This document shows, piece after piece, positions 1 through 62,386 of a DNA stretch of 64,000 nt. Source of the DNA: Carcharhinus amblyrhynchos (Eukaryota); assembly GCA_965287045.1 (NCBI GenBank), contig OZ336878.1:104656001-104720000 (forward strand), given 5' to 3'. The stretch's first letter is position 1. The number at the start of each line of letters is the position of its first letter. The translations under genes and the position numbers were made by a program. The notes below the pieces were generated by a model. The model saw only the letters and a program-made list of their open reading frames with translations. It made no database searches and was not told the DNA's origin.

Positions 1-1069
1 AAGATATTGTTTATAAAGCTGTTGCTAAACTATGAAATGTATTATACTTGGACGTTTTATATTGTTCATGAAAAATGGTGTATAAAATGATGCAACTCCT
101 CTAAAGCTGTTTGAATTCTGAATCGGCTGTCAAGTTCCATTGATTGTTTGCGCAGTTGAATTGAAAATCTATGATTTACGATTGCGCTCATAATTTGCAT
201 TGATTTAAATATAGTGGTACCAAAGCCATTAGACTTCTCAGTGCACTGAAATGATTTTTCTGACCAATAATTACAAGGACAGTTGACGCAGCCGTTGACA
301 TATTCCAAAGAAGAGAAGGGATTATCAGTGGACAATAGCTCACTGGAAGACGCGGCGAGGGGGGAAGGGTGGGGGGGGGGGGGGGGGGTGGGTGCAATGA
401 GGGATCTGAGTGCGATAAGTGGGGAAGTATAAGCGGGGTGAATAGGGAAAGACAGTTAGTGGCGGGTGAATTTTATTGGTAGGTGTTGGCGGTAAATTAA
501 TTTAAATGATATGGGGGCATTTGCTTCGTGGAAAAATGCAGGTTGGAGCTGTAATTGCGGATAATTGGGGTTAATGTCGGTGTTATTTGTTCAGTGAGTT
601 TACTCTTCAAAGCCCCTGAAGCTTTCCGATGCAATAACCCCTAGTTGCGATTAGTAGCATATGCTCGCTGGAGTTAATCTGTGGGTACATGTTGTTCATT
701 TGGCCCAAGCATTCGCCAGACAACCTATCCGATCCTTCCACCGTGCAACACTATTAAACGTATCCGCTAATCCTGCGGATATCGCCTGAACTTCCCCACT
801 TCTGCAAACCGAATGTAGAGTCAAACCTACAGAGAGAAACGGAAGCATGAAGAAGTGTAAAATGGAAATCAATTTTCTACTTGCTTCTCTACTTTGACAT
901 GAAATGGTGCTCTCGGATCGATGGAGAGTCATGTAACCCCATATTTTTCTTTTCTGTTTGAACAAGATGACTTTTATTACAGGCTGCGGATTCACCGAGC
1001 TGTTAGTTTCATTTCTTTACACGGTGAAATGGAATGAAAATAACTGCTAGCGCTTTGTGGAAATTAGAT

Positions 1070-1720
1070 AGGCAAACATGGTGGCACAATTTTAAAATTG
1101 CTGCCGTACAGCGCCAAGGATGCGAGATCGATTCCCAGCTGGGGCCATTGTCTATGCACAGTCTGCACGTTCTCCCTGTGTCTGCGTGGATTTTCTTAGG
1201 TGCTGCGATTTCCTCATACAGTCCGAAAGATGAGCTGGTTAGAAGCATTGGTCATTTTGAATGCACCCTCAGTGAACCTAAGCAGGTGCTGGAGTGTGGC
1301 GACTGCGGGAGGCTTCGTTTAATGGCATTAAGGCTAGATTATTACTTGAGAAACTCAACAAATATTCTAGAGACCCTGGTGCGAATCCTGGTGGAATTTG
1401 AATTCAATAAAAGAAAATCTGGAATTAAGGATCTACTGATGGCGACGTAACCATTGTCGATTGTCGAACGAAAAAAAGCATCTGGTTCACTAATGTCTAT
1501 TAGGGAAGGAAATTTTCCGTCCTTATCCCGCTGGCCTATATGTTACTCCAGCAATGTGGTTGTCTCTTAGTTGCCAACCAAAGTCAACTGAGGATGGACA
1601 GCAAATACTGGTCACCAAAGTCGGTTATATCCCATGGATAAATATAAAAAAGGGGATATTTATAATAACTTAATTGCTGTGTCAGTGTAAACCGACTTAT
1701 GATACCAATAAATCAGTTAT
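1070..1720 (+). mobile_element. tRNA-derived V-SINE (HE1-related), split by a second SINE
   Basis: Degenerate tRNA-like head (ggtggcacaa...gatcgattcc) and V-domain gtctgcacgttctccctgtgtctgcgtgg; tail resumes at about 1651 (aggggat...ccaataaa). Confidence 0.75.
1307..1651 (+). mobile_element. tRNA-head SINE sharing head/core and 3' tail with the LINE at 20978-24780
   Basis: Core ctggttcactaatgtctattagggaaggaaatt matches 21160-21195; tail tcccatggataaataaaaa-like matches 24765-24780. Confidence 0.75.
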
Positions 1721-2613
1721 TAAAGTCGATTTTGCATTAATATTGCGGGAGAACTAAAACAACATGTGTTAGTTTTTTTTCTCTAAATGGGGCACTAATT
1801 TGACATTTTGACGTGGTGACTTCATCCGTAGCATTTACGTGTACCCTCATAATAACGATAGTCCTTTGACATACACATATACTTGCGGTAGAACCATTAT
1901 TAGCATCATTTCACCTAGGCTCTGTAGTGTTTCTTGAAATTTAGTCAGTTCTGAAAGGTAAGCAACATTTTTTGAGTGTTGTATTAATTTTATCCTGTCT
2001 TACACGCTGATTTTTTTTCATGTATTGCAGTAAATGAAAGCGAAAAAAACATGTAAATTGCGTGCATCATACTTACATGAATGATGGAATGATCAGCAGC
2101 ATCAGTTTCCCAGAGGGAGGCAGTGTGGGCAATTGACACGACATTACTTTCTGCTTTCCATTGAATTCAAATCATGTGATATCAGATATCTTCTATTTTA
2201 AACTCCCGGTTTGCATCCATTTGACGGGATGAGTCCATCTTCAACAATACTGAACAAATTAATATAATTCAGCCTGCTTGATTGGCAGCTCGCTCTTGCA
2301 AACTCACTTCCTCCAACATTTGTTCTTACAGGAACTTGCACATTGAAAAGATGTATGGCAATAATTTCTATCTGTTCTTTCCAGAGCAATTTGAAAACAA
2401 ATACATTTATCGTAAGTAGTAGAAGGACGACATGCACTTCGGAAATCAACTGCGTGCACGCTCACATGACATCCTGACTTAGAATTATACGCTTGATGTT
2501 TGGAAAAGTATTCCTTCAGCAGGTTCTGAATATTAAATGTGATGGCCAAGAATGATGTGAAATCGAAAGGGAAATTAAATGATTACTGCCACATAAAATA
2601 AATCTCCTCGTAC

Positions 2614-2640
2614 CTACGACGTTTGAGATCACTTCTAGAT
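2614..2640 (-). CDS. Candidate micro-exon (27 nt): DLEVISNVV
   Basis: cagttgttag|ATCTAGAAGTGATCTCAAACGTCGTAG|gtacga; right length and phase, weak polypyrimidine tract. Confidence 0.3.
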
Positions 2641-3084
2641 CTAACAACTGACCAGTCTTACCTCGCTGACCTGTCTGTTATATGCGATGAGGACGACTTA
2701 ATTTTCTCTCTTGGAGGGTAACGAAACTGTGGAATTATTTAAGCGAATGAAATGCTATTGGATGAGGGAGGAAATACATAAATTATTATCTCAGATCAAT
2801 CATGACGGCATGGAATGGTGGAGCTGACTTGATGGATTAGAACGTCTGCTTCTGCTCTTACGTCATTGGGTATTAGCATATGGCCTGCCGCATATTTATT
2901 GCGTGGCTCCTTACCCTAGTTGTGACAGTTGCCTCGCGTCGCAATAAAAAAGGAATATTTCAAGTATCATTCATATTTTTTAAACTCGAAGCCCAGTTTC
3001 TTAGCATCAGCGTGGTTGACTTTAGATGTTTAAACAGAACAGGACAAGGAAAAAAAATCTAACATCTCCTTTAAATGTTTACTC

Positions 3085-4456
3085 AAGTGTAAGAAAATTC
3101 AAGCATTAACAGCCGCACAGAAAAAAAAAACGTCACTGTATATAAGGATCAGGATATAAGAGACCCGGGTTGGTGCGCTTTCAGACGAGAGGGGTCGGGG
3201 TGGGGGGCGGGGTGCAGGTGGGGCAAGGGATGAGATCGGAGTTTTAAATGGTCGGTGTGCTCTTCCTACCTCCCTGTTGGCCCACAAGGTCAGTTTATAT
3301 GTGTCAGGTACCAATCATCCGAATTGGTGGGCCTCCACGCGTACAGAACTGTACCATCTCATAACCTTTGGCGCTGCAGAGACTCATAGAAATTATGTCC
3401 CCTCTCATTGGCTGGAGGCTCTCCAGACCGATTTTGCTTCTATTCTAGTCATGAATTCCGGCGCGCAATTGGTTTTGTGAATTTGAGCATGATATCGCTC
3501 ATTTAAAATTGACTTCCCTTAGGGATGGCTTGGAAAAGGTATTGCTGACCAGAGTTCTACAGGCATCTCTCGTTGCCCCGCATGGTCCAGCCACAGGATG
3601 TTCGAGTGCAGTATTGAACGAATGGCTCAACGCACAGCCTACTCTAGCAATTACGTTGCAAATATTTTCCGTTTTTTTAATGAAAGCTTCTGCAACTAAT
3701 GTGTTTCTTGATACATGTAACCTTGAACACTGGTGAATCCTATCCTTTCCTTTGAACGTAGTAGCTCCCTTGGCAGTGTAAATTGAATAAGAACACTCAA
3801 GCATTAACAACCACACATACACACAAGAAGTCACTGTATATAAGGATCAGAATGTGAGAGGCCCGGGTTAGTTTTACCTCAGTAATCCTACTATTGTAAT
3901 ATTTGAGGAATTAATGAAGTGCTTAATTCACATGAACGAGACATTAAACATTGTAGTTTCAGAGAAACAAATGCATACACATCTGTTGAACCTCTGCCTT
4001 TCCTGCATTACTGCAATGATCATGCCGTAAACACGTGTTGCCGGTTCTGATTCACTTTGGGAGGAATTGTGCAAAGTGAAATATTATTGCAAACGTTATC
4101 ATTTTTCTTTTCTTAGGTCATATTTTGCGATATGTGTCATATTTATAATTATTTTGTATTGTTGACTGAATGTCCAGTTTGCAATTCGACGGATATTGAA
4201 TTGGAACTGATTTGGCCAAAGACCGTGACTACAGGTTATAAGAGAAAATTGTATTGACTTTTATTCGCCTTCCCTTAAGTCCTCACTAAGTTTCGGTATA
4301 ACGACATAATCCCGCTATGATACGAATCGCATCTTGAACGTTGCATCTTTTATGCGCTTGATCACTCATGTGGTAACATGCAAATAACGCACAGCCTATT
4401 CTTACAATTATGTTGCAAATATTTCCCTTTTTTAATGAAAGCTTCTCCAACCAATG
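3085..4456. repeat. Diverged local direct duplication (offset about 0.7-0.76 kb)
   Basis: tcaagcattaaca...gtcactgtatataaggatcag...cccgggtt at about 3098-3170 and 3796-3869; aacgcacagccta...ttgcaaatatt...ttaatgaaagcttct at about 3629-3695 and 4386-4450. Confidence 0.75.
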
Positions 4457-4664
4457 CAGATGTCAAGTCACCGACATATACAACAGCAGTAAAATCAGGT
4501 CAAATATAAATTGCAGCTACGTTTGGTAATATTGGAACTAAAGGCAACAGAATTTAACATTAATTGTACGAATTTAAATGGCACAAATACACACCTGCGT
4601 TTTTGTTCGCTAGTCGGTTTTCTAAAATAATAGGCAGAATAATGTAAACTTAAGTATTATAATA

Positions 4665-5300
4665 TGTTCTGTTCTCAAAGGAGATGTGCGTTACTAGCGA
4701 GAACAGCATTGAATGAAAGTCTCCTGTTGCCCTGCGGAAGATGTCTCACGCGGTCTTCTTGAACGGTTGCAGTTTAAATATCACAAGAAGGCTCACTTTT
4801 CCTTTAGGGGGGTGCTGAGTGGTTATAGCTCAGTGATATTGAATGCCCGTTGATAAGTTTCTACGTTATTATTGTGTGTGACTTGGTGGACACCTTGATA
4901 TACTTCTCTGCCATTTGAGCCATTATTCACTGAGGGGGAGGATGTGGCATGTTGGGAACGGGGAATAGACTACTGCAGGGATTCTGACGATTGATTCACA
5001 ATACAGTCAATTTGCATCTGCAACAGAGCTGTTTAATGAGTAAGGCGGTAGATGCTGAGCCAATGGAATGGTAGCTTTTTTTGACTCGGATTGAGCATCT
5101 CTAGCGCTATTGGAGCTTACCACATTAAATTAAAAAAAAACCTATCCCACCAAACTATTGGTTTCTGTCTTCGAATTGGGGAGGTAGGGAAGACTTGGAT
5201 AACTGGCAGGTAAAGTATTGTTAAAGGATTCCCAAAAGGCGAAGTGCCCTTTTAGTCTCACGAGGTATGTGATTCGTCTGGTGAATCTTCTGAATGATGC
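4665..5300 (-). mobile_element. Old 3' fragment of the tRNA-headed LINE family
   Basis: Degenerate reverse complement of the 23500-23800 and 24550-24780 segments. Confidence 0.5.
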
Positions 5301-6762
5301 TTATCCTCCTGGTATGAAGGGTGGCAACCGAGCAACAAGAAGAAGGGCAAATGGCAGGCTGCATTCTCGTTTCTTGAAATTTTGTTGACGTGTGTTGCAA
5401 AAATGTTATTTGCTAGTTACAAACCCAAGTTAGGATGTTGTCTAAATTTGCTGCATTGGACGGAACGGTTACATTTTCTGAGGAGTCGGACAAAGAACTG
5501 AAAATGGTGCAGTTGCTGGCGTTGTAGCAAATATGAAGTTTCATAAGATATAAGAGATATACAATTTCACTTTCAGGAATTAAAATGGAAGATTCGTTTA
5601 AAGGCACTGGCTTGGCGCATTCATTGACAGCCCTAATTTATTTAACTTTCAATTGACTGGGGGAAGAGGGCAGCACGCTGCGGTGTCCGAATGAAGCAAG
5701 AAAAGTTTGCTCTGGGGATGTGAGTCCAGGTTGCCTGTTGTTGTGTTTTGTTGTCTCTTCCATATTAGGTACACGTAAGGAAGAGGTCAGATTAAGAGCA
5801 AGCAGCTTCGCCGCACGATTTCTGTTTCGTTAAAAACAAGTGCTACGGGGCACGCTGTGTTATCTTTCTTCCAAATTTTTTTACTTTTGGGTCAAATTTC
5901 CAGGATCCATTTCATTTTGCTTCCAATTCATTAGTTCATTGATTTACTTGCAAATTATCAACTTGTTTCTCATGAACTAGATTCATCTGTTTTGATCTGT
6001 GTAATTTAGTACGCTCATTCTGTCAGTAAATAATTGCGTATTCCAGTGCATTTTTCACTATCAACACTTCTGCATGTAAACCACAAAATTCCATGTGCAG
6101 CTTTCTTGCTTTTCTCATGGATAGGGTTTCATTGATGAAGCAACTAAGCGTGGTTTGCTTTTGGACCCTGCTCAACGGAACTTCTAAAGCAGTATACTGG
6201 GGTTGAGATGTGTGGACTTAAAGAACACAATCATGTTTATTGGCAGCTGTCCCCCAGAATTTGACTAAATAACTTGCCAAAATGTATTCCAATTTTCATT
6301 CCAAAGTTGCTACTAATCTTTTTTTTATCCACATAGCATTAGCAAATGCCTCCACATAAGGAATACAACTCACTCATTCATTCTCGAATTAGCCTGTGTT
6401 CGGATCAAGGTTTTTGTGAGATCCACATCCGACCAGTTTACAGTTATCGTCTTTCTTGAATTTTCAAGCCATTACAGTGAATGATTGAATAACGATGCTA
6501 ATTTTAATAACGTTCACAGTTTCATGAAGAAAAGGGGAGAGTAGCATATACCTAATTGGCTGTACGTTTAAAGTTACATGAATCAAACAAAATGCAATAG
6601 GGAAAATCAATGGGAAGTTATTTGTTCCTGATAATTTAATCTAATCAATACACAATAAAATCAAACATTTCTCAATAGTAAATCACACCTTATGGAAAGA
6701 AGTTCAACAAAGGACAATACACTTTCAATGCATTAAAGTTAACTTCCACTGCTTTTGCTTAC

Positions 6763-6798
6763 CTTTATCTTGCTGACTGAGAAGTGCCTTCTTCAATT
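6763..6798 (-). CDS. Micro-exon (36 nt): ELKKALLSQQDK
   Basis: ttctttctcgtgttaacag|AATTGAAGAAGGCACTTCTCAGTCAGCAAGATAAAG|gtaagc. Confidence 0.85.
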
Positions 6799-6853
6799 CT
6801 GTTAACACGAGAAAGAAGAGTTTGAAGATTAATTTGTTTCATGCTTGTCATGT

Positions 6854-8246
6854 TAAGAACATAAGAAATAGTAGCAGGAATAGGCCATTTACCACTTCGA
6901 GCCTGCCCCGCCATTCAATAAGATCATGGCTGATCTGAAGTGGATCAGTTCCACTTTCCCGCTTTCTCCCCATAACCCTTAATTCCCCCGTCTATCAAAA
7001 ACCTACCTACCCGTGATTTAAATATATTTAGCGAGGTAGCCTCCACCACTACAAGGGGCATAGCAATCCAGAGTTTCGCCACCCTTTGAGTGAAGAAGTT
7101 CCTCCTCAACTCCGGTGTAAACTGCCCCCACCCGTTATCTTGAAACTGTGCCCTCTAGCCCTGCTATCCTTTCTAAGCGGGAAGAATCTCTCTAACTATA
7201 CCCTATCCATCCCCTTCATTTTCTTATACGTCGCTATAAGATCCCCCCTCATCCTTCTAAACTGCAACGAGTACAGACCCAGTCTATTTAGTCACCCTTC
7301 ATAGTCCAACCCATTAATCTCCGGTATCAGCCCAGTGAACCTCCTCTGCACTCCCTCCAAGGCCAATATATCCTTCCGCAAGTGCGGCGACCAAAACTGC
7401 ACACAGTACCCCAGCTGCGGCTTCACCAGTACCCTGTACAGTTGCAGCAAGACCTCCCTACTTTTACATTCTATCCCCCTTGCTATAAAGGCCAGCATTC
7501 CATTCGCCTTCTTGATCACCTGCTGCACCAGCAGACCGGGTTTTTGCGACTCGTGCACAAGGACCCCCAGGTCCCTCTGCACCGTAACATGCTGCAGCTT
7601 TTCGCTTTTTAAATAATAATCCCTCGACTATTGTTTCTGCCAAAGTGGATAACGTCACACTTGCTAAAATTACACTCCATCTGCTAGGTCCTCGCCCACC
7701 CTCTCAGCCTATCCAGATCTGTCTGCAGACTTTCCACATCCTCCACGCAATTTGCTTTTCCGCTCACCTTCGTGTCATCAGCAAATCTCGTCACCGTACA
7801 CTCAACCCCCTCCTCCAGATCATCTATATAAGTGGTAAATAGCTGAGGCCCCAGCACCGATCCCTGTGGCACTCCACTAGTCATCAACCGCCAACCAGAA
7901 TAGTACCCATTGATACCAACTCTCTGCTTCTTATTCGACAACCAATCCTACATCCACGCTAACACCTTACCCCCAACTCCATGCACCCTAACCTTCTGTA
8001 GCAACCTTTTATGAGGCGCCTTATTAAACGCCTTTTTGAAATCTAAAAATGCCACTTTCACCGGTTCCCCTCTGTCTACCGCACTAGTCACATCCTCATA
8101 GAAATCCAATATATTCGTCAAACACCACTTCCCCTTAACGAATCCGTGCTGCGTCTGCTCTATCAAACCATTATTTTCAAGGTGCCTCGCTATTCCTTCT
8201 TTGATGATGGGTTCTAGCATTTTTCCAACTACAGGTGTTAAACTAA
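6854..8246 (-). mobile_element. CR1-clade LINE (HER1-like), 5'-truncated, ORF2 disrupted
   Basis: RT fragments FLDFKKAFNKAPH, SGVPQGSVLGPQLF, RFADDTK; (cttatgtt)-type tail; closely matches 62387-63785. Confidence 0.95.
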
Positions 8247-8713
8247 TCTTATTCAGAACTAGTCTTATTCCGAACTGCCAGGAATGTACAAGCAGTTTTA
8301 CAGGTATATGTCGGGACATACATCGGAAAGCAAAACTGTACAATAATAATGTTACTGCAGAAAAATATGTTTACGGATTAATAAAAAAATCTTCAAAAGT
8401 TGAATGGTGTGCTACTGATTCAATTATGCCTACAAAAAACCTCAAAAATGATTGTTAAATGATGAACAATTATATTTTGTTAAAGCATTAATGTGTTAGG
8501 AACGATCATGAAGTCATTTGACGCAGGCTTTTCGAACATGAATGAATCAAAATAAATGTATATGCAGCGGTCTTCATGGACAAAACAAATTTATATGCAG
8601 TCAGTTGCACGAAAAGTCTCCATTTTGCACCAACGAATTCATGAGTGTAGCTAACTAGTAAGATAAATGGTAAATGCATTATAAAAGTCATTAATAAAGA
8701 AATATTGGCTTAC

Positions 8714-8740
8714 CAATGTCTTTGGCAAGCAGTTGCTGTT
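8714..8740 (-). CDS. Micro-exon (27 nt): KQQLLAKDI
   Basis: gatcttgtttttcag|AACAGCAACTGCTTGCCAAAGACATTG|gtaagc. Confidence 0.85.
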
Positions 8741-9736
8741 CTGAAAAACAAGATCCCAAAAATAATTTCAAATGTTGACTGCAATCGGAATGCATTCAGT
8801 GCAATATACAATATGGTACAACGGTTCTCAGGTAAATGAGAATTTGAACTCGATGGTTACCAGCGCAGTGACGATATTGCTTATAAGAACTCGGTGGCTT
8901 CCTCTTCCTCGGACAGCATCACTTTTTTGCTCTTGCAGGCCATAAATGATACTTGAAACTAATTAGACCAAGAATGAACGTAGCCTAAGTGTTTCTGCCT
9001 TCTTCCTTATCTGTGGATTTGGGATTGGCAGTGAAAAACATACTATCATCAATGAACTTCTTACTTTCAAACTGATGTCGAGGGAAATAAATCGTCAAAG
9101 CACGCGAATTGGTGCGCTCAAATAGCAGTGATGCGTGACACCACTGAGGCGACATCCTGTTGCTGAGCGGATTGTTGTCCAAGGCTCATGTTGGGACCGA
9201 TCAAACACATAAAGACATATTATGAAGTTAGCCTCGATCCCAACTCTTTTTGACTGTCTCATGAATGTGAGCATCATTTGTTTCATTCTGAGTGGGATTT
9301 TGGGATTTTTTAAAAAACTAAAACAAACTTTATTTACCAATACAATCTATCTATAATAAAAATAATTAGCGTACATTTTTTCCAATGGTTTTACCGAAAA
9401 TTGACAAGGTATAAGTGTTAACTGTTGACTTATCCCTATTCCTTCCAATTTAATTAATGTTCCTCAGAGATAAACAGCTGTTCAAACTCAGTTATTAAAA
9501 ATGCACTAGCTTACGTGGACTGCTAGTTCTCAACTTCTTAATACCTTCTGAGAGATTCCTATATTTCTAGTAGGTGTATGAGTTCAATTTCCAAACAGAG
9601 AGAGAGAGAGTACTTGCAAAATCCAACCAGAACTGTCTGTATGTCTTCCTCCATAAGTCTAGCTTCTCCAATTAGCACGTGATACGCTCTGGCAATCAAG
9701 GTAATTAAATGCTACTCCGAAACTCCAAATAATATG

Positions 9737-11100
9737 GGGATACCGGCGTTGGACAGGGGTGGGTACATTAAAAAGTCTTACAACACCAGATTAAAGTCCA
9801 ACAGGTTTTTCTGGTATCAGGAGTGCTGCTTGTTCATCAAGTGAATGGACAGTTGGGTTCACAAACACGACATTTATAGACAGAGTCAATTGCAGAATAA
9901 TTGGTTGTCTTCACAGGTACAGACAATACGAGTGGAGTGAGGGATAATCACATGTTAATGAGGTGCGAATTGTCTCAAGGCAGGACAGTTGGTAGGACTT
10001 TCCAAGCCCAGGCCAAATGTTGGAGGTTATACGTATTGCATCATAAACACTAGGCCACCGTTGAGGCCATCCTCATGGAACATGGCTGTCAATTACTGTT
10101 TAGCGACATTGCATTGTGTGTCTTGAAGAACGCCTTGAAGAGCGCTTACCTGAAGATTGGAGGCTGAATGACCTTGACTGCTGAAGCATTCCCCGACAGG
10201 AAGAGAACACTCCTGCCTGTTGATTGTCATAAGGCGTCTGTTCATCTATTGTCACAGCATCTGTATGGTGTCACGTATGTACTCTGTCCCTGAAGACATC
10301 CCTCAGTGTATGAGGTGGACAGTGTTGTCCGAGTTGGATCGATATGTACCGTACCCGTGACAAGAACATAAGAACATAAGAAATAGGAGCAGGAGTCGGC
10401 CATCTAGCCCTTCGAGCCTATCTTGCCATTCAACAAGATCATGGCTGATCTGAAGTGGATCAGTTCCACTTTCCCGCTTTCTCCCCGTAGCCCTTAATTC
10501 CCTTGCCTATCAGAAATCTATTTACCCGTGACTGAAATATATTCAGCGAGGTAGCCTCCACCACTTCAATGGGCAGAGAATTCCAGAGACTCACCACCCT
10601 TTAAGTGAAGAAGTTCTTCCTCAACTCTGATCTTAACAGTTCCCCCCCACACTCTTATTTTGAAGTTGTGCCCTTTAGTTCTGCTATCCTTTCTAAGCGG
10701 GAAGAATCTCTCTACATCTACCCTATCGAGCCCCTTCATTATCTTATAAGATCCGCCCCCAGCCTTCTAAACTCCAACGAGTACAGACCCAGTCTATTCA
10801 ATCTCTCCTCATAGGCTAGCCCCCTCGTCTCCGGTATTAGCCTTGTGAACCTTCTCTGCACTCCATCCAAGGCCAATATATCCTTTCGCAAATGCGGCGA
10901 CCAAAACTGCCCACAGTACTCCAGTTGCGGCCTCACCAGTGCCCTGCACAGTTGCAGCAAGACCTCCTTGCTTTAATATTATATCCCCCTCGCTATGAAG
11001 GCCAACATTCCATTCGCCTTCTTGATCACCTGCTGCACCTGCAGACTGGGTTTTTGCGATGGGTGGCGTTAGCGTGATAGTGTGATGAATCGCCAATGGA
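9737..11100 (-). mobile_element. Penelope-like element, 3' part (degenerate GIY-YIG region plus terminal repeat), interrupted by CR1
   Basis: Minus-strand translation ...RQECSLPVGECFSSQGHSASNLQVSALQG... and ...HEDGLN; terminal motif caacaccagattaaagtccaacagg also at 34925-34950. Confidence 0.75.
10361..11059 (-). mobile_element. CR1-clade LINE 3' fragment inserted in the Penelope-like element
   Basis: ALVRPQLEYCGQFWSPHLRKDILALDGVQRRFTRLIP; same 3' UTR and tail as other copies. Confidence 0.95.
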
Positions 11101-11151
11101 CAGCCCAAGAAACAAACAAAACTATCTTGGTTCTGATTTAAATATACATCC

Positions 11152-11194
11152 CATTATCTAGGATTATTTACGTCATTATCTAGGATTATTTACG
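11152..11194. repeat. Tandem duplication, 22-nt period
   Basis: cattatctaggattatttacg twice, separated by 1 nt. Confidence 0.9.
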
Positions 11195-11849
11195 ATTCTA
11201 CATTCTCAGCAGTTGGGCTGCCTGCAAGAGACAAATTAGCACCAACATTATCAAAGTTTTCGTTTTAAATATTCCCTTCACAAAGATCAAGATGCAAAAT
11301 CCATGTCTTAAAGGGACAGTATCTTCACACTCATAACCAGCTTTATTTCTATTGAATATGAGCTTACGTGATGAACATTTGCCCTATGTTCCCCTCTTAT
11401 TTCCTTATCGTTTCATTTGGTAGAACATTGTTTTGATGCCGATGGATGGAGACATGGCTCCCCACTGGAATTCAGTTATTTGTATGTGTTTGGCAGGAAT
11501 ATGCTCTGAAAACGCATTGCTACCCTTTGCTGTGGGGACTGTGTTCTCGAAAATAATTACTGCTGAGATTGATAGAGTTTTGATTCATCAAGATATCAAT
11601 GTTCACAAGGAAAGTGCAGGAACTTTATACATGAGAAATTTTGAATCGGTCTTGATCCAAAGGTAAGGCAGAGCAGACTCGACGTGTTGAATGGCCGATT
11701 TCTCTTCCCATTTCTTATTATATTCCGGAAATGAAAAGCCGTCACTGATGAGCAGTGGTGAACATCAGTGAGTCTAAACAGAGTGCTTAACGTCTTGACA
11801 CATCGTATGTAAGTCATATTGCACTGTTTCCTCGTTCAAGAGGAGGTAA

Positions 11850-13439: not shown

Positions 13440-14880
13440 TGCGGAACAACGCCACATGCACACTTGCATGCCACAGCTTGACGTAGGTTCCATCATTTTA
13501 AAAGGCAAAATATCAGCCATAACTTCTCGATTCATCATCGATCCAAGAGTTCTCGTGAGACTCCAGGATCAGACATGAAAATTTTGAACTAAGTTTGCCA
13601 TTAAAACACGGGACAATGTTTTCGCATACATCATGAAGTCTGACAGCATTTCGGAAATAGCACGGACAATTTTTTTCATATCAAGCCATCAAATAGCAAA
13701 TGTAGCCAGGCCTGCCATGGCACACTAAAAAACAGAAAGTCCAATCCGTCAAATGAATGCCCCATCGGTACTCTTCATGATCATCAAAATGTTGAAATTT
13801 TCTGTCGACAATACTTTGATACGCTGCTTGCTCAGCAGTAACTTGTTTGCTTATGCTCTGTTTGCCTTCCGCCAGCATTCCTCAGCTCCTAACTTCAGCA
13901 CACCCCTGCCAAATATGCACTCAATAGATGAGGTGGGGCGACCTCACAGCAACACTTGGCCGATTCTACGGTGAAGGTCTCCTAACAGTATTGCAGTCAC
14001 TTGGAACCAAAGGGAAATTTATCCACTATTTTGAATCACACATAGTACAGCAGAGCATGGTTGTGATTGACGAAGTTCATCGTCTCATTTCCACGGCAGC
14101 AATTTCTGAGATTAACAGAACCATTTTGTAGCTCCAACTATCCTTAACAGCTACATCGATGATTTTTCCTCCATCATGAGATCATTGCCTGAGCGATATT
14201 CAGCACTATCCCCGTCTCCATGTATACTAAATTAATCATGCCCAAATGCAGCCAAACCTGGAAAACACTCAAGAATTGGCCTGCCAAGTGACTGGCAATA
14301 ATCTCGCAGCTCAACCTTCAGGCCATGACCATCACCAAGCATAGATCATGCAAGCATCCCCTATTGGCGAAATTCATAGTAACTTCATTGCAGTATTAAT
14401 GCAATGTGACTAATAAGTCAACTTTTTTTACATATCCGATCGCGTGACAATCATTTGCTTGGCTGCCACCAAATTTGCCAACACCAATTTTCAATCACTC
14501 CGTTGTATGCACAATGATACCAGTGTGTACAAATTATACCATGCACTGCAGCAATTTACCAAACCTTATTCCCAGCATCTTTCAACGCACGAAATCGACC
14601 ATGTAGAAGCAAGGCACAGAAAATATTTAGGACACGCCCACCTGACAGGCCCCTTCAATGACATATAACAATCTAAATTTGAAGTATATTGCTGCCCCAT
14701 TACTATCGCTGGCTATTATTCCATAACTTTGCTCCTAACGGCAGTGAATGCACCGAAAGTACACGGACAGACTTACGTCAAGAAATTGGCTCCTCACCAC
14801 CACATTACCTGTCATCATAGATGAATAATAAATACTGGGCACTGCATTGACACTTCTCCAACACTTCCACATCCGATGAA
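13440..14880 (+). mobile_element. Old RT/3' fragment of the tRNA-headed LINE family
   Basis: Collinear degenerate match to about 22500-24780 (e.g. catcgatgatttttcctccatcat; cacatccgatgaa tail). Confidence 0.65.
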
Positions 14881-16694
14881 AACATTCTGTGACTAATATT
14901 AACAAGCAATTTTCATTTGATATCTTTGTGGTTGCGTACATTTTTCATAGCATTGCATATTTTGAGATCGTACGCAAGGGGGGAGTCTGAAAATTCGCTT
15001 GAAGCAAAATTTACGTCCTCTCTTTACAATTGCCTATCACTATTCCCAGTCGGATGTTACATCTATGCCATGTGTTGACGTGATCAGCTGTGTGGAATTC
15101 CTTAACTACATCCGAGAATGTTGCTTCTGCTTTTAAGCATATTTGCAATGATTAGTTTTTGCTTCAAGAAAATTGGTGCTGCATTTTCAGCAGATTGCTC
15201 CCAGAGCCCAAAGATTTTCTAATTGGATGGATTGGCCATTGTTTTGTGAAGTTGCAGGGTTAGAATGCAGGAGAGGATCTGGGTAAGATACTCTGTCAAA
15301 TACTCCACCCAGACACTTCAGCACTTTTGATATTCCATGATTGTCTTGGCACAATAATAGTTAGAAGCATCTGTGACAAATAGATAGCTGATCGTGAAGT
15401 AGGAGGAATTAACAATGGCGTCCACTGTCATCTGTTGTAGCTTTTAGCTGCATGCTATTGTAATAAACACATATTCGGCACAACAAGTGTTAATGTGAGG
15501 CTGGAGATTGTCACCATCACAGTATGAGATAGATAGTCATTTGAGAGTAGTCCTTGACATAATATTCTCCAGAAAATCGTCACGAAGACGTCACACATAA
15601 ATGGCCATACACGTGATATGCATATACCTATGAGTTTGAATGTTGAATAATTGAATGTTTAAGTAGATAATTCTCAAGAATTATCAGGTGGCGTTCAAAT
15701 AAACCTTTACAATATCATTACTTTCCCTTTCAGATTCCTTTCTAGCTTGACCAGTATTGAAGTCAGCGTACATCTCGCAATGCCATTTTCAAAGTGTGAT
15801 GGATTTTTGGACGGCAGGCGTACGAGCTACTGTCTAGTATCATCAAAATAGCGTGGAACGAATTTTGCGTGACAGTTAGCAGCGCTAGCTTCATCTAATC
15901 TAGCAACATCAACATGGCGCAGAGCAAATGCTCGAGAGATTCTCGTGACTGATTGCCTAAAAATATTTGCTACTTCCCAACGCATAAGTAAAAAGTGCAA
16001 TGAATATTTTCTTGGGTAGATCGGCGCAGCTACACAATGAGACAGAGAAACTTTAACATCAGCCAGAGCGAAATAAAGCGTTATTTGCAATTTATGCTCC
16101 CAACCTTCACATCACACTGGATACCTTCGAGCAGCGCCATAACCATTCTCTCCTCCATATTAAGTACATCGTGATTGTGAAATACATCTTTTTTAAAATG
16201 GTCTCCGGCAATTACCAATTTGTCTTTGAGGGCATCCATGAAAGACATTACTTTGATTATTAAGGATAAACATTGCCGGCCCATAGGAACATTGCCATCT
16301 CCAATCTCCCTTGCAAGACATTGACCTGGCTTGACAATATATCACATTCCCTTATTCTCGCTGAGTCACTCTTCTTAACAGATAATTGAGTGCTGACAGA
16401 GCATGGGCTACAGCGTTTCAAGGTGGATGCTCAGCATCAGTGTTTCAACGATAATGTTTCAACAACAAAGGGAATAAATGCTGAGCTTCCATGTGCTGCT
16501 CAAAGCCACGTATGGCTGAACCCCTTGTTAGCAGCCTTACCTCTTCACCTTCCCATGCACTCAATGATACAGATGAGTTCTATACGTCTGACTGCACCTG
16601 CACATCACCACACGTATTCAGCTAATGCATGCTTTCAAGTGAAACATCAGTCACCTAATCTAACATTTGACTTGGATTTAATTGGGATACTCAC

Positions 16695-20930: not shown

Positions 20931-20986
20931 CATAATGCACAAAATGTCAGAATTGCAGTTCTCTACCCACCTTGGATGGGAGATAA

Positions 20987-21059
20987 TGGCCTAGTGGTAT
21001 TATCGGTCGACAATTAATCCAGAAGCCAGATAAAGGTCTGATGCCTGGGTTCGAATTCC
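20987..21059 (+). promoter_or_regulatory. Internal Pol III type-2 promoter (A and B boxes)
   Basis: TGGCCTAGTGG fits TRGCNNARYGG; GGTTCGAATTCC fits GTTCRANNC. Confidence 0.7.
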
Positions 21060-23812
21060 TCCAGGGCAGATGGTGGATATGAAGTCAATTAAACAAAAAT
21101 CTGAAATTAAGATCTATTGATGACCACGAAACCATTGTCGATTTTCGGGAAAACCTAGCCGGTTCACTAATGTCATTTTGTGAAGGAAATTTGCCTTCCT
21201 TACCGGGCCTGGACCACATGGGATCCCAGAACCATAACAAAATGGTTGACTCTCAGTTGTCCTCTGAAATGGCTTAGCAACCACTCAGACGTATCCATCG
21301 CTGCAAAGTCTCAAGAAAGATATGAAACTAGACGGACCAGCTGGCTTTGACCTCGGCACCGGGAAAGACAACAGCAAAAGAAGGAGCCCTGTCAACTCTG
21401 CAACATCCTCCTTACCAACATCTGGTGGTTAATGGATGGCTAAGACTGGGAGAGCTGTCGCATAGATTCATCAAACAACAGCCTGACATACTGATTCTTA
21501 CGGAGCCGTACATCCAAAACCCTAAATATCACCATTACCATCCTTGGATATGTCCTGTCTCAGCGGCAGGACAAGACCCGCTGGAAGTGGTGGCACAATG
21601 GTATACAGTCAGGAGGGAGTTTCCGTGGGAGGCCTTAACATCGACTCCGGACTCCATGAAGTTTCATGGCTTCAGGTTAATTATGGAAACCTCTTCCTGG
21701 TTACCACGTATCCTCTTCTTTCGGCTGATGTATCGGTAATACTCCATGTTGAACAAAACTTGGAGGAAACACTGAGAGTGACAATGGCGCAAAATCTACT
21801 GTGGGTGGGGGATTTCTATTTCCATCACCAAGCCTGGCTCGGCCTGAACTGGTCTGGTCCTGATTGACTGGGTCTGCAGTAGGTGGTGAGGGAACCAACA
21901 AGAGGAAAAACATACTTGACGTCATTCTTACAAATCTGCTTTTGCAGATCCATCTGTCCATGTCATTAGCGGTACGAGTGAAAAAAAAACAGACTTTTTG
22001 GAGATGAAGTCCCGCCTTGATATTGAGAAGAACCATCCTCGTGGCAGTATCACCGTGCCAAATGGGGCAGAGTTCGAACTGTTCTTGGAAGTCAAGACTG
22101 TGCATCCATGGGGCTTTGCGGGTCATCAAAATAATCAGGAATGTACTGCCACAATCCAAAACCTCATGGCACTTCAAATTTCCCACTCAACAATTACCAT
22201 CAAGCCAGTGGATCAAACCTAGTTCAATGGAAACTGCAGGAGGGCATGCCAGGAGCAGCACTGGGGTATACCTAAAACTGAGATATCTCTCTGATGAAGC
22301 TACTGAACAGAGCTGCTTGCGTGCCAAAAGCAAAAAAAAGTGACTCAAAATCAGCTGATCAGACCAAAGCTATGCCGTTGTAGCACATCAATCGTGACTG
22401 TTGATGGAGAACTAATCATCTGAGTGGAGGAGGAATACTCCAGAAATATCCCTATCCTCGGTGATGGAGGATTCCAGTGCAAAAGATAAGACTAAGGTAT
22501 TTGTATTCATCTTCACCCAGAAGCGCCGATCCATTTCAGCTTCCACTAGTGGGCCCCCGCTTTCCAGTCTCCAGCAAATTAGATTCATTCCACGCAACAT
22601 CTAAAACGGTTGGAGGCACTGGATACTGCAAAGGCAATAGGCCCTGATGACATTCCGTCAATAGTACTGTCATTGCTCCAGAATTTGCCGTTCCCCTACC
22701 TAAGCTTTTGTAGTACATTTAGAACGTTGGCATCTACCCAACAATGTGGAACGTCGCCCCGATATGTCCTTTACACAAACAAGCAGGGCAAATCCAACCA
22801 GTAAACGTCCAAACAGTCTACGCCGGATCATCAGTAAAATGGTAGAAAGGGAATCAACAGCCCTGTTCAGCTGTAAGCTGCTCGCTGACGCCCGATTTGG
22901 TTTTCGTCAGGATCTCTTAGCTGCTGGTCTCTATACAACCTTGGTTCAATTACGGACAAAGAACTGAACCCAGTCATTAGGTGAGAGTGATAGCCCTCAA
23001 TATCAAGGTCACATTCGACCGAGTGCGTTATCATGGAGCACTAGCAAAACTATAGTCAATGAATATCAGGGGACAAGAACTCGGACGCTTCTAGGGCACT
23101 TTGGGCACTTCTAGGCCCAAAGACCTTCAGCTGCTTCATCAATGACGTCCCCTCCGTCACACGGTGAGAATTGGGGATTTTCCCCGATGATTGCACAATG
23201 TTCAGCACTGTTCAGAACTCCTCAGATAAAGAAGCAGGGAACGTTGAAATGCAACACGATGTGGACAATGTCTAGGCTTGGGCTGACAACTGGCAAATAA
23301 CATTTGGGCCGCACAAATGCCATGCAATGACCATCACCAGTAAGTGACATTCAACAACCCCCCACCCCTCCTTGGCATTTGATGATATTGCCATCACTGA
23401 GTGCCACACAGTGCCAACATCGTTGGGTTTACCATTAACCGGAAACTCAATTGGGCTCACCACATAAACACAATGGCTATAAAAGCAAGTCAGAGGTTAG
23501 GAATACTGCGACGACTAATCAGTTCCTGACTCCACAAAGCCTATCCGCCATCTTCAGTGCACAAGCCAGGAGCGCGATGGAATTCTCTCCACTTTCTTGG
23601 ATGGGTCCAGCTCCAAAAATACTTAGGAAGCTTGACACCATCCAGGAAAAAGCAACTCCCTTGATAGGCACCATATCAACGAACATCCTCTCCCATCCCC
23701 TACTGACGCTCTGTAGCATCAGTGTGTACTATCAACAAGATCAGCAATTCACCAAAGATCCTTAGCTCCTTCCAAACCAGAAAACTTCCGTCTCGAACGA
23801 CGAAGACAACAA

Positions 23813-24548
23813 ATAAGAACATAAGAAATAGGAGCAGGAGTAGGCCATCTAGCCCTTCGAGCCTGCCCCGCCATTCAATAAGATCATGGCTGATCTGTCA
23901 TGGCTCAGTTCCACATTCCCGCCCTCTCCCCATAACCCTTAATCCCCTCTCTTATCAAAAACCCATCAACCCGCGTCTTAAAAATATTTAGCGAGGCAGC
24001 CTCCCCCACTTCAACGGGCAGAGAATTCCAGAGATTCACCACCCTTTGAGTGAAGAAGATCTTCCTCAACTCCGTTCTAAACCGCACCCCCCCCCACTTT
24101 ATCTTGAGGCTGTGCCCCCTAGTCCTATTATCCTTTCTGAGCGGGAAGAGTCTCTCCACCTCTATCCTATCCATCCCGTTCATCATCTTATACGTCTCAA
24201 TGAGATCTCCCCTCATTCTTCTAAGCTCTAACGAGTACAAGCCTAGTTTATTCAGCCTCTCCTCATAGCTCAATCCCCTCAACTCCGGTATCAGCCTAGT
24301 AAACCTCCTCTGCACTCCCTCCAAGGCCAAAATATCTTTGCGCAGGTGCGGCGCCCAAAACTGCACACAGTACTCCAGCTGCGGCCACACCAATGCCCTA
24401 TACAGCCGCAGTAAGACCTCCCTACTTTTATACTCAATCCCCCTCGCTATGAAGGCCAACATCCCATTCGCCTTCCTGACCACCTGCTGCACCTGCAAGC
24501 TGGGTTTTTGCGACTCATGCACAAGGACCCCAAGGTCCCTCTGCACCA
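23813..24548 (-). mobile_element. Young CR1 3' fragment inserted in the tRNA-headed LINE; open ORF2 C-terminus (23905-24548)
   Basis: VQRDLGVLVHESQKPS...FFTQRVVNLWNSLP...GYGERAGMWN*; host LINE resumes after 24548. Confidence 0.95.
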
Positions 24549-24789
24549 CCTCCAATTGTAAGCTACTCTCGAATCCACTCACAATGCGGATTTGGAAATA
24601 TATCACTGTTCCTTTGCAGTCGCTCCGTCAAAATCCTGGAATTCCCTCCCGAACGGCATCGTGGGTCAAACATAGGCTGCAGCAATGCAAGAAAACAGCT
24701 TATCACCACCTTTTCAAGGGAAACTAGGGTGAGCAATAAAAGCTTGTCACCCAGCAGCGCCCGTGTCCCATGAATGAATAGCAGTAGTA

Positions 24790-35430: not shown

Positions 35431-35589
35431 ATTCGGAAAGCAGTGGTTTATTGTTGCTGGTGTAGTCACCCGGAGACTTTGACGAATATTCTGCATGCGA
35501 GCCACCACTCTAGTATTAACATTCAATACCGACACAAGAATCTTAGGATCGCTCCAGCGCATTGTTTCTGCATTGCCTGTCAGAGATCA

Positions 35590-36657
35590 TCCTACCCTGG
35601 CCCAGCCCTGCCCTGTTCCAGTAAGCTCATATATTAATTCAGCTAATCTTCCTAATGTACATGTCATGGGACATGAAGTGACAACTTATCATTGCAAATC
35701 CCCAACAGCCTACATATATTTGAGCTGCAGAAGAAAATTGGAAGAAATTCAAGAAGACATGGAGAGAACATGCAAAGTCCGAGACAGAGTACAGGAATGA
35801 GACAGGGAATCTGGTGAGCTCGTGCGGCAACGATGATCTCTCCCTCAATGTCAAGAAAACGAAGAAGATTGTCATCGACTTCAGGAAGCGTAAATGAGAA
35901 CATGCTACTGTCTACATCGACGGGGCCGAAGTGAAAAGTATCGTGTGCTTCACTGTCCAGATCAACAACAACCAATCCTGGTCCCCCATGCCGATACTAT
36001 ATTTATGAAAGCCGACCAACGCCTGTACTTTCTCAGAATACTAAGGAAACTCGGCACGTTAGCTACGACTGTCACCAGTTTTTACACTTGCACCAGAGGA
36101 AGCTCTCTTTCTGGTTGTATCACAACTTGGTATGGCTCCTGGTCTGCTCAGGAAACTAGAAAAGATCGTGAACGTAGCCCAATCCATCACGCAAACCAGC
36201 CTCCCATCCATAAACTCTGTCTACACCTCCCGATGCCTTGGCAAATCAGCCAGTATAATTAAAGACTCCACGCACCCCGGACATTCTCTCTTTCAAAAGT
36301 TCCTTCGGGAAATAGATACAGAAGTCTGAGGTCACCTACCAGCCGACTCAAGAACAGCTTCCCTGCTGCTGTCAGACTTTTGAATGGACTTACCTTGCAT
36401 TAAGTTGATCTTTCTCTACACTCTAGCTATGACTGTAATACTACATTCTGGACTCTCTCGTTTCATTCTCTATGAACGGTATGTACTGTCTGTATTGCGC
36501 ACAAGAAACAATACTTTTCACAGTATGTTAATACATATTACAATAAACCAAATCAAATCAAATCAAAAGATCCACATAGACGTGCAAGGCCGGAATGGAA
36601 CCCAGCTGCCTGATCCTGTGGGGCAGTAGTGCCGGCACTGTGCCAACGTGTCACCAA
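35590..36657 (-). mobile_element. V-SINE split by a Rex1 insertion
   Basis: Head reverse complement at 36570-36657; V-domain gacatggagagaacatgcaaa at 35757-35777. Confidence 0.6.
35780..36568 (+). mobile_element. Rex1/Babar-type LINE 3' fragment
   Basis: LSLNVKKTKKIVIDFRK; KADQRLYFLRILRK...LSGCITTWYG; (aaatc)n tail. Confidence 0.85.
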
Positions 36658-37484
36658 ATGTTCACGATGGCATCATTACCGATTGTCATGAAATCACACC
36701 TGGTTTGCTAATTTCCTTTGGGAAAGTAAATCTATCTACTTGTCAGACATGTGGCTCCTGACACACAGCAATACATTTGAACCTTAATTGTCCTGTGAAA
36801 TGGCATAGCAAAACACTAAGCTATATACAAAAGCTACAAAGAAAGCAAAAATAAACAACCAGAATTGTTCTGACAACTCAGAATGGACCTTGGCAGCAGG
36901 AGTAACAATGACAAACTCAGCCGTATCGATCTGGAAATGTCCTCATAACTAACCTCTGGATAGTTGCACCAAAATCAAAAGAACAGGCTCGCGGACCAGT
37001 CAAGCAACAGGATGACATATTTTTATGATCAGAATTAGCGTTAGAGCTATTGTCCAAAACATCAGCGTCACTATTCCTTGGTTTGCCTCCTCCCACCAGA
37101 TGGCAGGCCCATCAGTTGTGGCGCACAGTTGTTTACAGTCTGCCTTGGAGATTCACTGCGTTGATTGCGTACTGGTGAATTATAATGGCATCAACTGAAT
37201 GTTGGCTTTATGCTGATTACTGCATATCGTCTCGGTCCCCCTCCGCCCTCAGCTGCCGAATCAGTGCTGTTCAATGGGGAACACCACTTGATGGGAATAT
37301 TGAAGGTGATAAGGGCACACAAAATACTCTGTGTGACGAACTTAATCTAGAATAGCTCAGCTCCAGTACGTCAATGCAGCATTCATTCAAACATATACAA
37401 AAGACATCTCGATTGATAAAGTGAGAGCGATTGTCCTTGTCATCAAGGCATCATTTTCCGGAGCGCAGCATCAGTTTGCGCTAG

Positions 37485-37632
37485 NNNNNNNNNNNNNNNN
37501 NNNNNNNNNNNNNNNNNNNNNNNNNNNNNNNNNNNNNNNNNNNNNNNNNNNNNNNNNNNNNNNNNNNNNNNNNNNNNNNNNNNNNNNNNNNNNNNNNNNN
37601 NNNNNNNNNNNNNNNNNNNNNNNNNNNNNNNN
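37485..37632. other. Assembly gap (148 N)
   Basis: Run of n. Confidence 1.
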
Positions 37633-39495
37633 GCGTGTTGGGGGGAGGGGCGTCTTTCCATTAAATGGAGTACTCACTGTTGAAAAGAAAGATACCTGAA
37701 TCATTTCATCACTATGCCATCGCTTCAAAAGTTCTGAATGAACTTCTTCAGGCTCAACCACATTCAAATGTTTATTCAGGGACGTTATCTCCATGATCAC
37801 GTCAGAAGTAGAGATTTTGCTGCAAACTGAATAATGTTCAGCCCTTTTCAGGACTAAGGAGATACTCAAATATTCCAATTCCAAGTGCAGCAACAATATC
37901 CAAGCTTGGGCTGGGAAGTGCTAACAACGCATGTGCCACACAGGCGCTATCAGCGAATATCTCCAATAAGAAATGATAATGCCACCCACCTCATTCCCAT
38001 GCACATGCACTGTCCTTGTCGTCGTTCACTCTTACACTACCAACACCCCGCTGGGTAACCATTTAAAATAAACAGATTTGAAATTCTAACTTCAATACTA
38101 CCGATGCAAAATCAGCTCAAAGGATAATAATCTGACCTCAAGGAACTGGTCTCCTAATTCGTCACCTCACGTCCACCTTCGACAACACGCAACTCTCTGG
38201 TGTGCTGGAATATTCTCCAGTTTTCTCCAGAATTTACAGATAGCAACAAAGTTTGTCACCATCCAGTATAAAACAGCAGAAGTTATTGCTGCTGCTTCGA
38301 GAAACATTCAATCTTTCTGTTGACGGGGATCCTGGGTCAGCTAACAGAACCATAGTCCGAATCTTAGTTTTTGTATTACATGGGGAAGAAGGAGTTGAAG
38401 GGACTGTGAACCGACGATATTATGTTAGCAGTTTGCTCATATGTGAATAGTAGACTATTTCCAAAGGGAAAAAAGATGATTTCCATGTTAAGTGAAAACA
38501 GTTATGTTTAATGATAGTAACGTATCCATATTAGAGATTTGAAAAAAAAATCAGTGTAGTAATTATACGAGTGTTGTGATGAAAATAGACGTGCAAGAGT
38601 TCAGAAGTGGCAGTCATTTGGTCAGCAGAAAACATAGTACAGCTCCGTATTCAGAGAGGATGTTGAAGCATTTAATGAAACATTTAATATTAAAAACGTA
38701 AAGTCTCATCGTCAACTGATGGGAAGCTTCAGCTCTTTAGGCCCAAGAGATGGTGCTATCTATTATTTTGGAAGAATGCTGTTGCGAAAAGTATCTGAGT
38801 ACAAGATTCCTAAGCAACAATGTTTACCAGCAAGCTGGTCATGCGGGGGGTGGGGAGGGGGTGGTGGTGGGGACGCTCCGTCAGAGGAATGAGCAAATGA
38901 TGAATCAACATAGTAAGATCACCAAGGAGCCACTGAATGTCAATTAATCCAGACTCCAGGGCTTCGCGTGGCAGCTGAAAAATTATTCTAACTTGGAAAG
39001 TTCCCCCTGCTTCCGGGAGATGGCCCTCAACGATGAGTTTTTGTGGTGCCCTTGTCGGGGAATGTGTCTCATTTCCCAACATCAGGAAAGGTCTACAGAA
39101 TATGCCTGTTGTTTCCAAATATGTAAATTGAAAAAGGTGTTATTGTTAATGGATAGAAGAAAGAGGTTTCAAATACACGCCTTTTATCTTACCTGCAATC
39201 AGTAGAGTTGAACTCAATGTTGCATATATAACAGTTATTAGAAAGATCGCATCCATATTTCACAGGTTCCCAAATTCTGAATTATGATAGTTTCGTGAAT
39301 GAGTCCGTGATGATAACTTTGCATTCCAAACCGCAAAATAGCTTTGCTTGCCACAGAGCAAGTCTTACAATAAACGGAAGTCTTCAAAATTACGAAAATT
39401 ACGAAATCTTGATGAGCATTTTTTTTAGCATTTTGATTGTTGTATAGAACACAATGGATACTTCGGAATAATCCTGATATAGATTATTTCTTCAC

Positions 39496-62090: not shown

Positions 62091-62386
62091 AAGTTTGCGT
62101 GTATTGTGTGGACTGTGTATAAGCGTATGAATGTTGGAACTGAAAACTAAACATTCAACTTCAAATCACAGTGGGAAGGGAAATTGTTAAAAAAATTCGA
62201 ATATCTGTGCATAGGAGCTGGTTGTTGATAAATCATGGTACCTTCCACAAATTGAATGCTGTTTTTATACAAAAAATGCAATTTTCTCTTGAAACAATTG
62301 CGCAATGTTGCACTTAACTTACATTTTTGGTGCAACGTGTGACGCACAGACTGTACGCCCCAACGATTGGATACTCCATTCACGTA

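Follow-up and report, generated by a model that had tools for sequence, protein, structure and literature searches.

A tRNA-derived head with A and B boxes opens elasmobranch Zenon LINEs and may act as an RNA polymerase III promoter

The stretch analysed here, 64,000 nucleotides (nt) of Carcharhinus amblyrhynchos DNA (GenBank assembly GCA_965287045.1, contig OZ336878.1, positions 104,656,001 to 104,720,000 of the forward strand), is hereafter called the window, and positions are given in its coordinates. It is repeat-rich animal DNA and holds, at 20978-24780 on the plus strand, a decayed copy of a Zenon long interspersed nuclear element (LINE). A tRNA-like head with A and B boxes is followed by a core of about 220 nt, an APE endonuclease (EN), a reverse transcriptase (RT) and a 3' tail. 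An earlier note, written from the sequence alone, had proposed this succession for a LINE headed by an RNA polymerase III (Pol III) promoter of tRNA type, and the boxes, the protein motifs and matches in Pfam and the ESM Atlas bear it out. Without a later CR1 insert the copy measures 3,065 nt, in keeping with the roughly 3.1 kb expected. No target-site duplication was found around it.

The tRNA-derived head occupies 20978-21075 on the plus strand, as do all other parts of the copy except the insert, and carries an extra hairpin between its two boxes. The core (21076-21295), part of the 5' untranslated region (UTR), was delimited by its similarity to other copies in the window, with identities of 75% to 1320-1609, 62% to 50514-50741 and about 65% to the older Zenon copy described below. 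A linker (21296-21432) was recognised from its open reading frames (ORFs) and from the whale-shark gene model P0014, which starts in the core and runs through the linker into the EN N-terminus. The EN itself (21408-22100, 3' limit approximate) is broken by frameshifts and stops and was assigned from motifs, homologues and the ESM Atlas. Its motif I (LLTN) starts at about 21408-21417, so that the distance from the head start is 430-440 nt and not the 420 nt first proposed, while the junction itself is real. The closest homologue of the EN piece matched PF03372 with an E value of 0.0014, below the curated cut-off, and an ESM Atlas feature search with a second EN homologue retrieved endonuclease/exonuclease/phosphatase clusters at 0.94-0.95. 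The RT (22600-23450, limits approximate) is likewise broken and rests on motif reading and Pfam; its piece at 23120-23440, with stops read as X, matched PF00078 at E 0.002, also below the cut-off. A young, 5'-truncated canonical CR1 lies on the minus strand at 23811-24547, identified by its RT C-terminus and by 95.4% identity to 62386-63118, and loose read ends pile up at its edge, at 23813. In tblastx, only a weak resemblance (32% over 31 aa) links the Zenon RT to the canonical CR1 of the window. The ORF's last part and the 3' tail with an AATAAA follow at 24548-24780, supported by a tail alignment and 73% identity to 52084-52294. The A-rich tail has decayed in this copy, and short A-rich ends are found on the copies at 1305 and 52084.

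EN and RT remnants thus stand in order, and the 430 nt before the EN have neither room nor an ORF for ORF1: the longest ATG-started ORF there has 36 codons, beginning at ATG 21322. This short upstream ORF (uORF) overlaps the EN start in another frame, and the EN frame within the linker is Arg/Lys-rich with no nearby in-frame ATG. With such a frame and an overlapping uORF, initiation of EN-RT would be unconventional whichever polymerase makes the RNA. A start-stop ATG at 21269 precedes both the uORF and the EN frame (21269-21432); by eye, it is in frame with the EN in the Zenon-1 consensuses of 3 of 5 species, which raises read-through or re-initiation.

We regard 20978-24780 as, almost certainly, a fixed and now dead representative of the elasmobranch Zenon LINE, an ORF1-less, single-ORF (APE plus RT) family of the CR1 group with a length of about 3.3 kb. 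The family was thought to be possibly catalogued already, and it was found as Zenon-1 in Stuart et al. 2026 (PMC13343379). All seven elasmobranch Zenon consensuses in Supplementary Table 2 of that work (CarCar, RhiTyp, ScyCan and HypSab Zenon-1; SquAca Zenon-1, -2 and -3) open with the head, core and linker seen in the window, across five species that include sharks and a stingray. The consensus comparisons and motif counts given here cover the first 400 nt of each supplement row. Within these 400 nt, the two hagfish consensuses and the one coelacanth consensus have no such head or core. The junction of head, core and endonuclease is hence a structure of the family, as had been proposed, and a chance SINE (short interspersed nuclear element) insertion beside a truncated LINE is ruled out by the seven consensuses, which we count as one lineage. 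Of the seven, the whale-shark consensus is by eye the nearest to the window copy, colinear with it at about 80% over the first 400 nt and with the same diagnostic head variant. A 14-nt motif from the window occurs in 6 supplement rows, all of them elasmobranch Zenons.

As described in the same paper, Zenons occur in elasmobranchs, coelacanth and hagfish, lack ORF1 and are poly-A tailed, and those of five elasmobranch species are more than 84% alike. Their genome share is 6.8% in both white and whale shark, lies at 3.0-4.4% in catshark, dogfish and sawfish, and is down to 0.7% for skate and stingray (PMC13343379). The earlier note had placed the SINE core "in place of ORF1", which fails because Zenons are without ORF1 in all phyla surveyed (PMC13343379); no ORF1 was there to be replaced, and ORF1 replacement is ruled out. 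The family is known and the dead copy ordinary, and what is apparently new is the tRNA-type head on a coding LINE.

Searches with the protein pieces agreed with this assignment in range. A phmmer search gave 14 matches, of which the 7 named were all from sharks (six gene models of whale shark and one of horn shark), and another of the matches, P0012, is an unrelated repeat protein. Zenon EN fragments also lie within the shark gene models P0005, P0013 and P0019, by exonisation or annotation error; these models comprise a CWC25 homologue (horn shark), a kinase-like protein (whale shark) and an amino-acid transporter (catshark genus). Word-index searches aimed at long relatives of EN or RT returned only one exonised fragment, in the catshark-genus transporter model. 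Scans of loci with protein profiles gave no confirmed relative, a PDB search gave nothing below E 0.3, and scans of viral, metagenome and prokaryote collections with core motifs gave no match in any of the three.

In the window copy the A box lies at 20987-20997 and the B box at 21048-21058, the latter with one mismatch to GTTCRANNC. Neither ARAGORN nor Rfam detected a tRNA in the decayed head, and a strict regular expression for A plus B boxes also missed it; it is the published family consensuses alone that make the tRNA origin clear. There, the A box fits TRGCNNAGTGG in 7/7 and the B box GTTCRAATC in 6/7, the stingray consensus falling one base short, and variation in the boxes is mainly at degenerate positions (these and the following comparisons of boxes, arms and stems among consensuses were made by eye). 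In the consensuses the A box begins at position 6-11, and in the window copy at 10, as in tRNA genes; the consensus 5' ends thus lie 5-10 nt ahead of the A box, at the place where Pol III starts. The two boxes are about 50 nt apart, more than in a plain tRNA, owing to the extra hairpin, in which two pairs are changed on both sides between the Squalus consensuses and those of white shark and catshark. White shark, catshark and dogfish have a Thr(AGT)-like anticodon arm, and that of the whale-shark type is altered. In the galeomorph consensuses only 3 of 5 T-stem pairs are left, with the B-box sequence kept. Six B-box 10-mers occurred 6 times in 1,004 supplement rows, always in elasmobranch Zenons. 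A hammerhead-like order of words at about 21118-21140 was dropped, as positions that should be invariant vary among the consensuses. Single-copy folds all gave z above -1.2, and RNAalifold on four decayed cores gave 4 pairs and no covariation.

To judge from these sequences, an intact tRNA-type promoter head is present family-wide on a coding LINE and has apparently gone unremarked. Our literature search found no description of a tRNA head on Zenon, although a note in Repbase or Dfam may exist, and the word tRNA has no occurrence in the main text or supplement of PMC13343379, in its preprint or in the whale-shark preprint (10.1101/443036).

Two further elements in the window, both on the plus strand, consist of head and core joined straight to the Zenon tail. 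The one at 1305-1650, recognised from alignments, is a short SINE-like form of a young type; the other, at 50514-50800 (nhmmer E 2.7e-10 and alignments), is of an older type with a longer core, and its head is badly decayed. Both have the parts by which SINEs are defined, namely a small-RNA head, a non-coding body and the tail of a partner LINE. A name for a tRNA-headed, Zenon-derived SINE-like family was not found in the literature search. The same short core is found in the LINE at 20978 and in the short form at 1305. The core at 50514 is about 10 nt longer, like that of the Squalus consensus, and the older Zenon copy shares a neighbouring diagnostic base (by eye). This suggests, from two pairs only, that the 5' parts of LINE and SINE evolve together. 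The core is best taken for the 5' UTR of the LINE, which a SINE-like deletion form has in common with it. Three of 6 aligned tails carry an AATAAA close to the 3' end.

The older Zenon copy (36656-38313, plus strand; local alignment and nhmmer) contains core, linker, EN, an internal deletion, a gap of N and RT. Its core, linker and EN are colinear with those of the first copy (36656-37343 against 21115-21815), with 471 of 737 columns identical (64%), an alignment score of 339 where the highest among 50 shuffles was 97, and an nhmmer E value of 6e-38. The earlier note's claim that a second copy, at 35440-38310, repeats the core-to-EN junction thus holds for the junction, while the start at 35440 is shaky. 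The putative head at about 35440 is weakly supported: its score was reached by 3 of 300 shuffles with a SINE head as query, and by 211 of 300 with the head of the first copy. The interval is moreover interrupted by nested elements at 35750-36655, identified by repeat comparison, by the deletion, at which 37345 jumps to the counterpart of about 22910, and by 148 bases of N at 37485-37632. Additional Zenon fragments lie at 13680-14894, 5513-4667, 9099-8918, 52084-52294 and 53146-53296. A locus at 46029-46222 resembles an EN fragment (score 99.5 against a shuffle maximum of 88.5), and no head or core was seen upstream of it. A fragment at 19037 is weak, with E 0.023 in one search and a score below shuffles in another.

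Public reads were mapped at 80% likeness from 4 of 18 listed runs, and the resulting depths are not copy numbers. Summed depth was 0-20 in the first flank bin, reached 23,000-104,000 across head and core, and came to 1,250-4,840 in the linker and 370-11,300 in the early EN. Inside the element it stayed above flank level in all four runs, the lowest bins holding 33-243. The CR1 insert dominated the mapping, in which neither a core-to-tail joint of the short form nor junction-spanning contigs from other loci came up. The same locus is covered by low-difference contigs under three other organism labels, and for two of these labels the contigs extend out of the 5' flank into the head. These close matches are the orthologous insertion and not independent copies, and the insertion is therefore old and shared.

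As for what the head does, we put the probability at roughly one half that the LINE RNA is initiated in Pol III fashion, from this tRNA-derived promoter. Zenon appears to have gained the head at its 5' end before the split of sharks and rays, with template switching or recombination involving a SINE RNA as the probable route. The A and B boxes would most likely form an internal promoter, presumably served by TFIIIC and Pol III, from which full-length copies would start their RNA at tRNA position +1 and so hand the promoter on, as SINEs do. The RNA would run through the core into EN-RT, which may be translated without a nearby AUG of its own, by a non-AUG start, re-initiation or a frameshift from the uORF. 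Target-primed reverse transcription through the 3' tail, which is established for the CR1 group, would then copy the Zenon RNA, and the short forms, composed of head, 5' UTR and tail, would be internal-deletion siblings moved by the same RT.

The argument for this reading begins from the 5' end of a retroelement, which marks the start of its RNA. A head retained from +1 in sharks and rays would mean that the RNA starts there in each cycle, since a start elsewhere would add or lose sequence every time, and a 5' end at +1 is what a promoter made of A and B boxes would give. Full-length, near-consensus insertions, the same junction in the second copy and unbroken read depth were also counted in its favour. 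The longest genomic insertions, at 3,299 nt in white and whale shark, reach consensus length (PMC13343379).

Several observations weigh against a Pol III origin of the LINE RNA. An uncapped Pol III RNA of 3.3 kb needs export and translation, which is possible and inefficient. The 5' ends of the consensuses may have been sharpened by the commoner SINE copies during automated extension. Intact ORFs are nearly gone (0/2313, 1/1419 and 3/612; PMC13343379); we read the first two denominators, 2,313 in white shark and 1,419 in whale shark, as near-full-length copies. The intact-ORF2 cell for SquAca_Zenon-1 in Supplementary Table 3 of that work holds 675852, an apparent spreadsheet date error, and is unusable as a count.

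Runs of T, at which Pol III terminates, point both ways. In constructs of mouse B2, a TTTT ends about 65% of transcripts, and a T5 almost all of them (PMC8466645). By composition, some 4-7 T4 runs would be expected over 3.3 kb. The 20978 copy has 8 runs of four or more T on the sense strand (one of them T5) and 26 on the antisense strand. The 8 sense runs compare with 6.9 expected from dinucleotide shuffles, so there is no depletion. Simulated decay of a TTTT-free ancestor left 3.7-7.7 runs, and that of an unconstrained ancestor 6.2-10.4; the observed number fits both, with the unconstrained ancestor slightly favoured in most settings. The fate of 6 of the 8 runs was assessed among the window copies. 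Those at 21142, 21176, 22901 and 24711 are missing from most or all other significantly aligned copies, which favours the Pol III reading, and the run at 23178 is shared with one of the two other copies that retain the site, which is unfavourable. Judging from protein P0007, one of the eight is probably derived. None of the seven elasmobranch consensuses has a TTTT in its first 400 nt, against 2,750 such runs in the supplement, or about 2.7 per row, a point in favour of Pol III. These 400 nt are nearly all shared with the SINE, and their lack of TTTT therefore says little about the LINE body, a further limit on the Pol III reading.

The fullest form of that reading, an autonomous coding LINE that would have been Pol III-made from end to end for some 270-300 million years, with a 3.3-kb sense strand nearly free of T-runs, uncapped translation of EN-RT behind a structured leader that has no AUG of its own, and SINEs arising by one deletion, is a tentative proposal on present sequence grounds, with the odds somewhat against it.

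Among the alternatives, the one that survives best has the head family-wide and the LINE mRNA made by Pol II, with its start at or close to +1; the A and B boxes would bind TFIIIC to open or insulate the locus, and Pol III would make only the SINE RNA. By the general view LINEs are transcribed by Pol II (Kojima 2018), a capped RNA would solve the problem of translation, the T-runs of the 20978 copy are not depleted, and AATAAA near the 3' end of half of the aligned tails could be a Pol II feature. This last signal does not discriminate, because Pol III SINE RNAs can be polyadenylated too (PMC8466645). A Pol II start would moreover have to stay fixed at tRNA +1 throughout the history of sharks and rays, and a YY1-like motif at the head was seen by eye in the consensuses of only 2 of 5 species. 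We consider a Pol II origin unlikely, though it deserves serious weight.

A second alternative makes the head a passenger of the LINE, kept for the sake of the abundant SINE and recopied onto LINEs by recombination or conversion through the core, or in part an artefact of the consensuses. The head and core bins are indeed far deeper than those of linker and early EN, as in run X4 (80,207 and 103,667 against 4,843 and 1,590, again not copy numbers), the head of the older window copy is weakly detectable, and exchange would likewise give LINE and SINE the same subfamily marks. On the other side, the copy at 20978 is one uninterrupted copy from head to tail, the top genomic insertions match the full consensus length, and all seven consensuses, built from five genomes, end at the same place; we hold this explanation to be improbable.

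Least probable, and hardly to be expected, is a head that acts as RNA, a tRNA mimic that RNase P would cut at +1 to free unit-length RNA from read-through transcripts: it would also place the 5' end at +1, could account for the both-sided pair changes in the extra hairpin and has parallels in the 5' self-cleavage of other LINE clades (5' ribozymes of R2, RTE and Ingi), but the B box is kept where the galeomorph T-stem has lost pairs, which DNA recognition fits better, and the head of the 20978 copy folds no better than shuffles (z -0.26).

Compared with described systems, the window copy agrees with elasmobranch Zenon-1 (PMC13343379) and the element called CR1-Zenon-like (10.1101/443036) in head, core, linker and EN start, is also without ORF1, and differs from Zenon-1 only by decay and the CR1 insert (about 3.1 kb against 3.24-3.31 kb). 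The passages on elasmobranch Zenon in these two works do not mention the short SINE-like form. Lepidopteran Zenon and Persaeus (Wang et al. 2019, PMC6740152) are likewise a single-ORF Zenon with a short partner made of its 5' UTR and 3' tail; as described there, Persaeus lacks a Pol III promoter and any homology to tRNA, 5S or 7S, whereas the long and short shark forms both carry one. LINEs with tRNA-like sequence are on record in the RTE clade, RTE-1_DAn and relatives, in one passing sentence that gives neither position nor promoter role (Kojima 2018, PMC5786205). The bipartite SINEs Bov-tA, SINE2_Gav and CoeSINE4 of the same paper combine a tRNA head, a LINE 5' UTR and a LINE tail, which is the layout of the short shark forms. 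Their middle parts come only from RTE and Vingi and the head is on the SINE alone, whereas the shark donor belongs to the CR1 group and the coding LINE is headed too (PMC5786205).

The core had been likened to Meta-domain SINEs such as salmonid SlmI, and in a comparison with bivalve Meta-domain SINEs this resemblance was not upheld. The head of MetaSINEs is described as closest to tRNA-Thr (Nishihara et al. 2016, PMC4824008), and the anticodon arm of the shark consensus is Thr(AGT)-like by eye. The sequence after the Zenon head is, again by eye, unlike that of the bivalve BivaMeta-SINE1 and BivaMD-SINE1 shown there, and on this comparison no 66-bp Meta-domain follows the head. SlmI is listed with a tRNA-Leu head and an RSg-1 tail, and this head type and tail differ from those of Zenon.

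In the window as a whole, Zenon-related pieces amount to about 8.2 kb, or 13%, with two weak matches included. Canonical CR1 3' fragments of differing age, 82-95% alike and all on the minus strand like the insert, lie at 6854-8246, 10359-11059, 23811-24547 and 62386-64000. At 35750-36655 the nesting reaches three levels: a 3' fragment at about 35797-36567, ending in (AAATC)n, splits a minus-strand element that itself lies inside the older Zenon copy. We take the minus-strand element to be V-SINE-like and the 3' fragment L2-like.

A coding LINE with such a head touches the basic rule by which LINEs are Pol II-transcribed and coding and SINEs Pol III-transcribed and non-coding. Among some 1,000 vertebrate CR1-group consensuses, only elasmobranch Zenon had the B-box words searched for. 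If Pol III does make the RNA, Zenon would be a natural case of a Pol III-transcribed mRNA and would offer a direct route from LINE to SINE by a single deletion. If Pol II makes it, Zenon would still be a LINE that adopted a SINE head, and it would extend to the CR1 group Kojima's model in which SINE bodies derive from LINE 5' UTRs.

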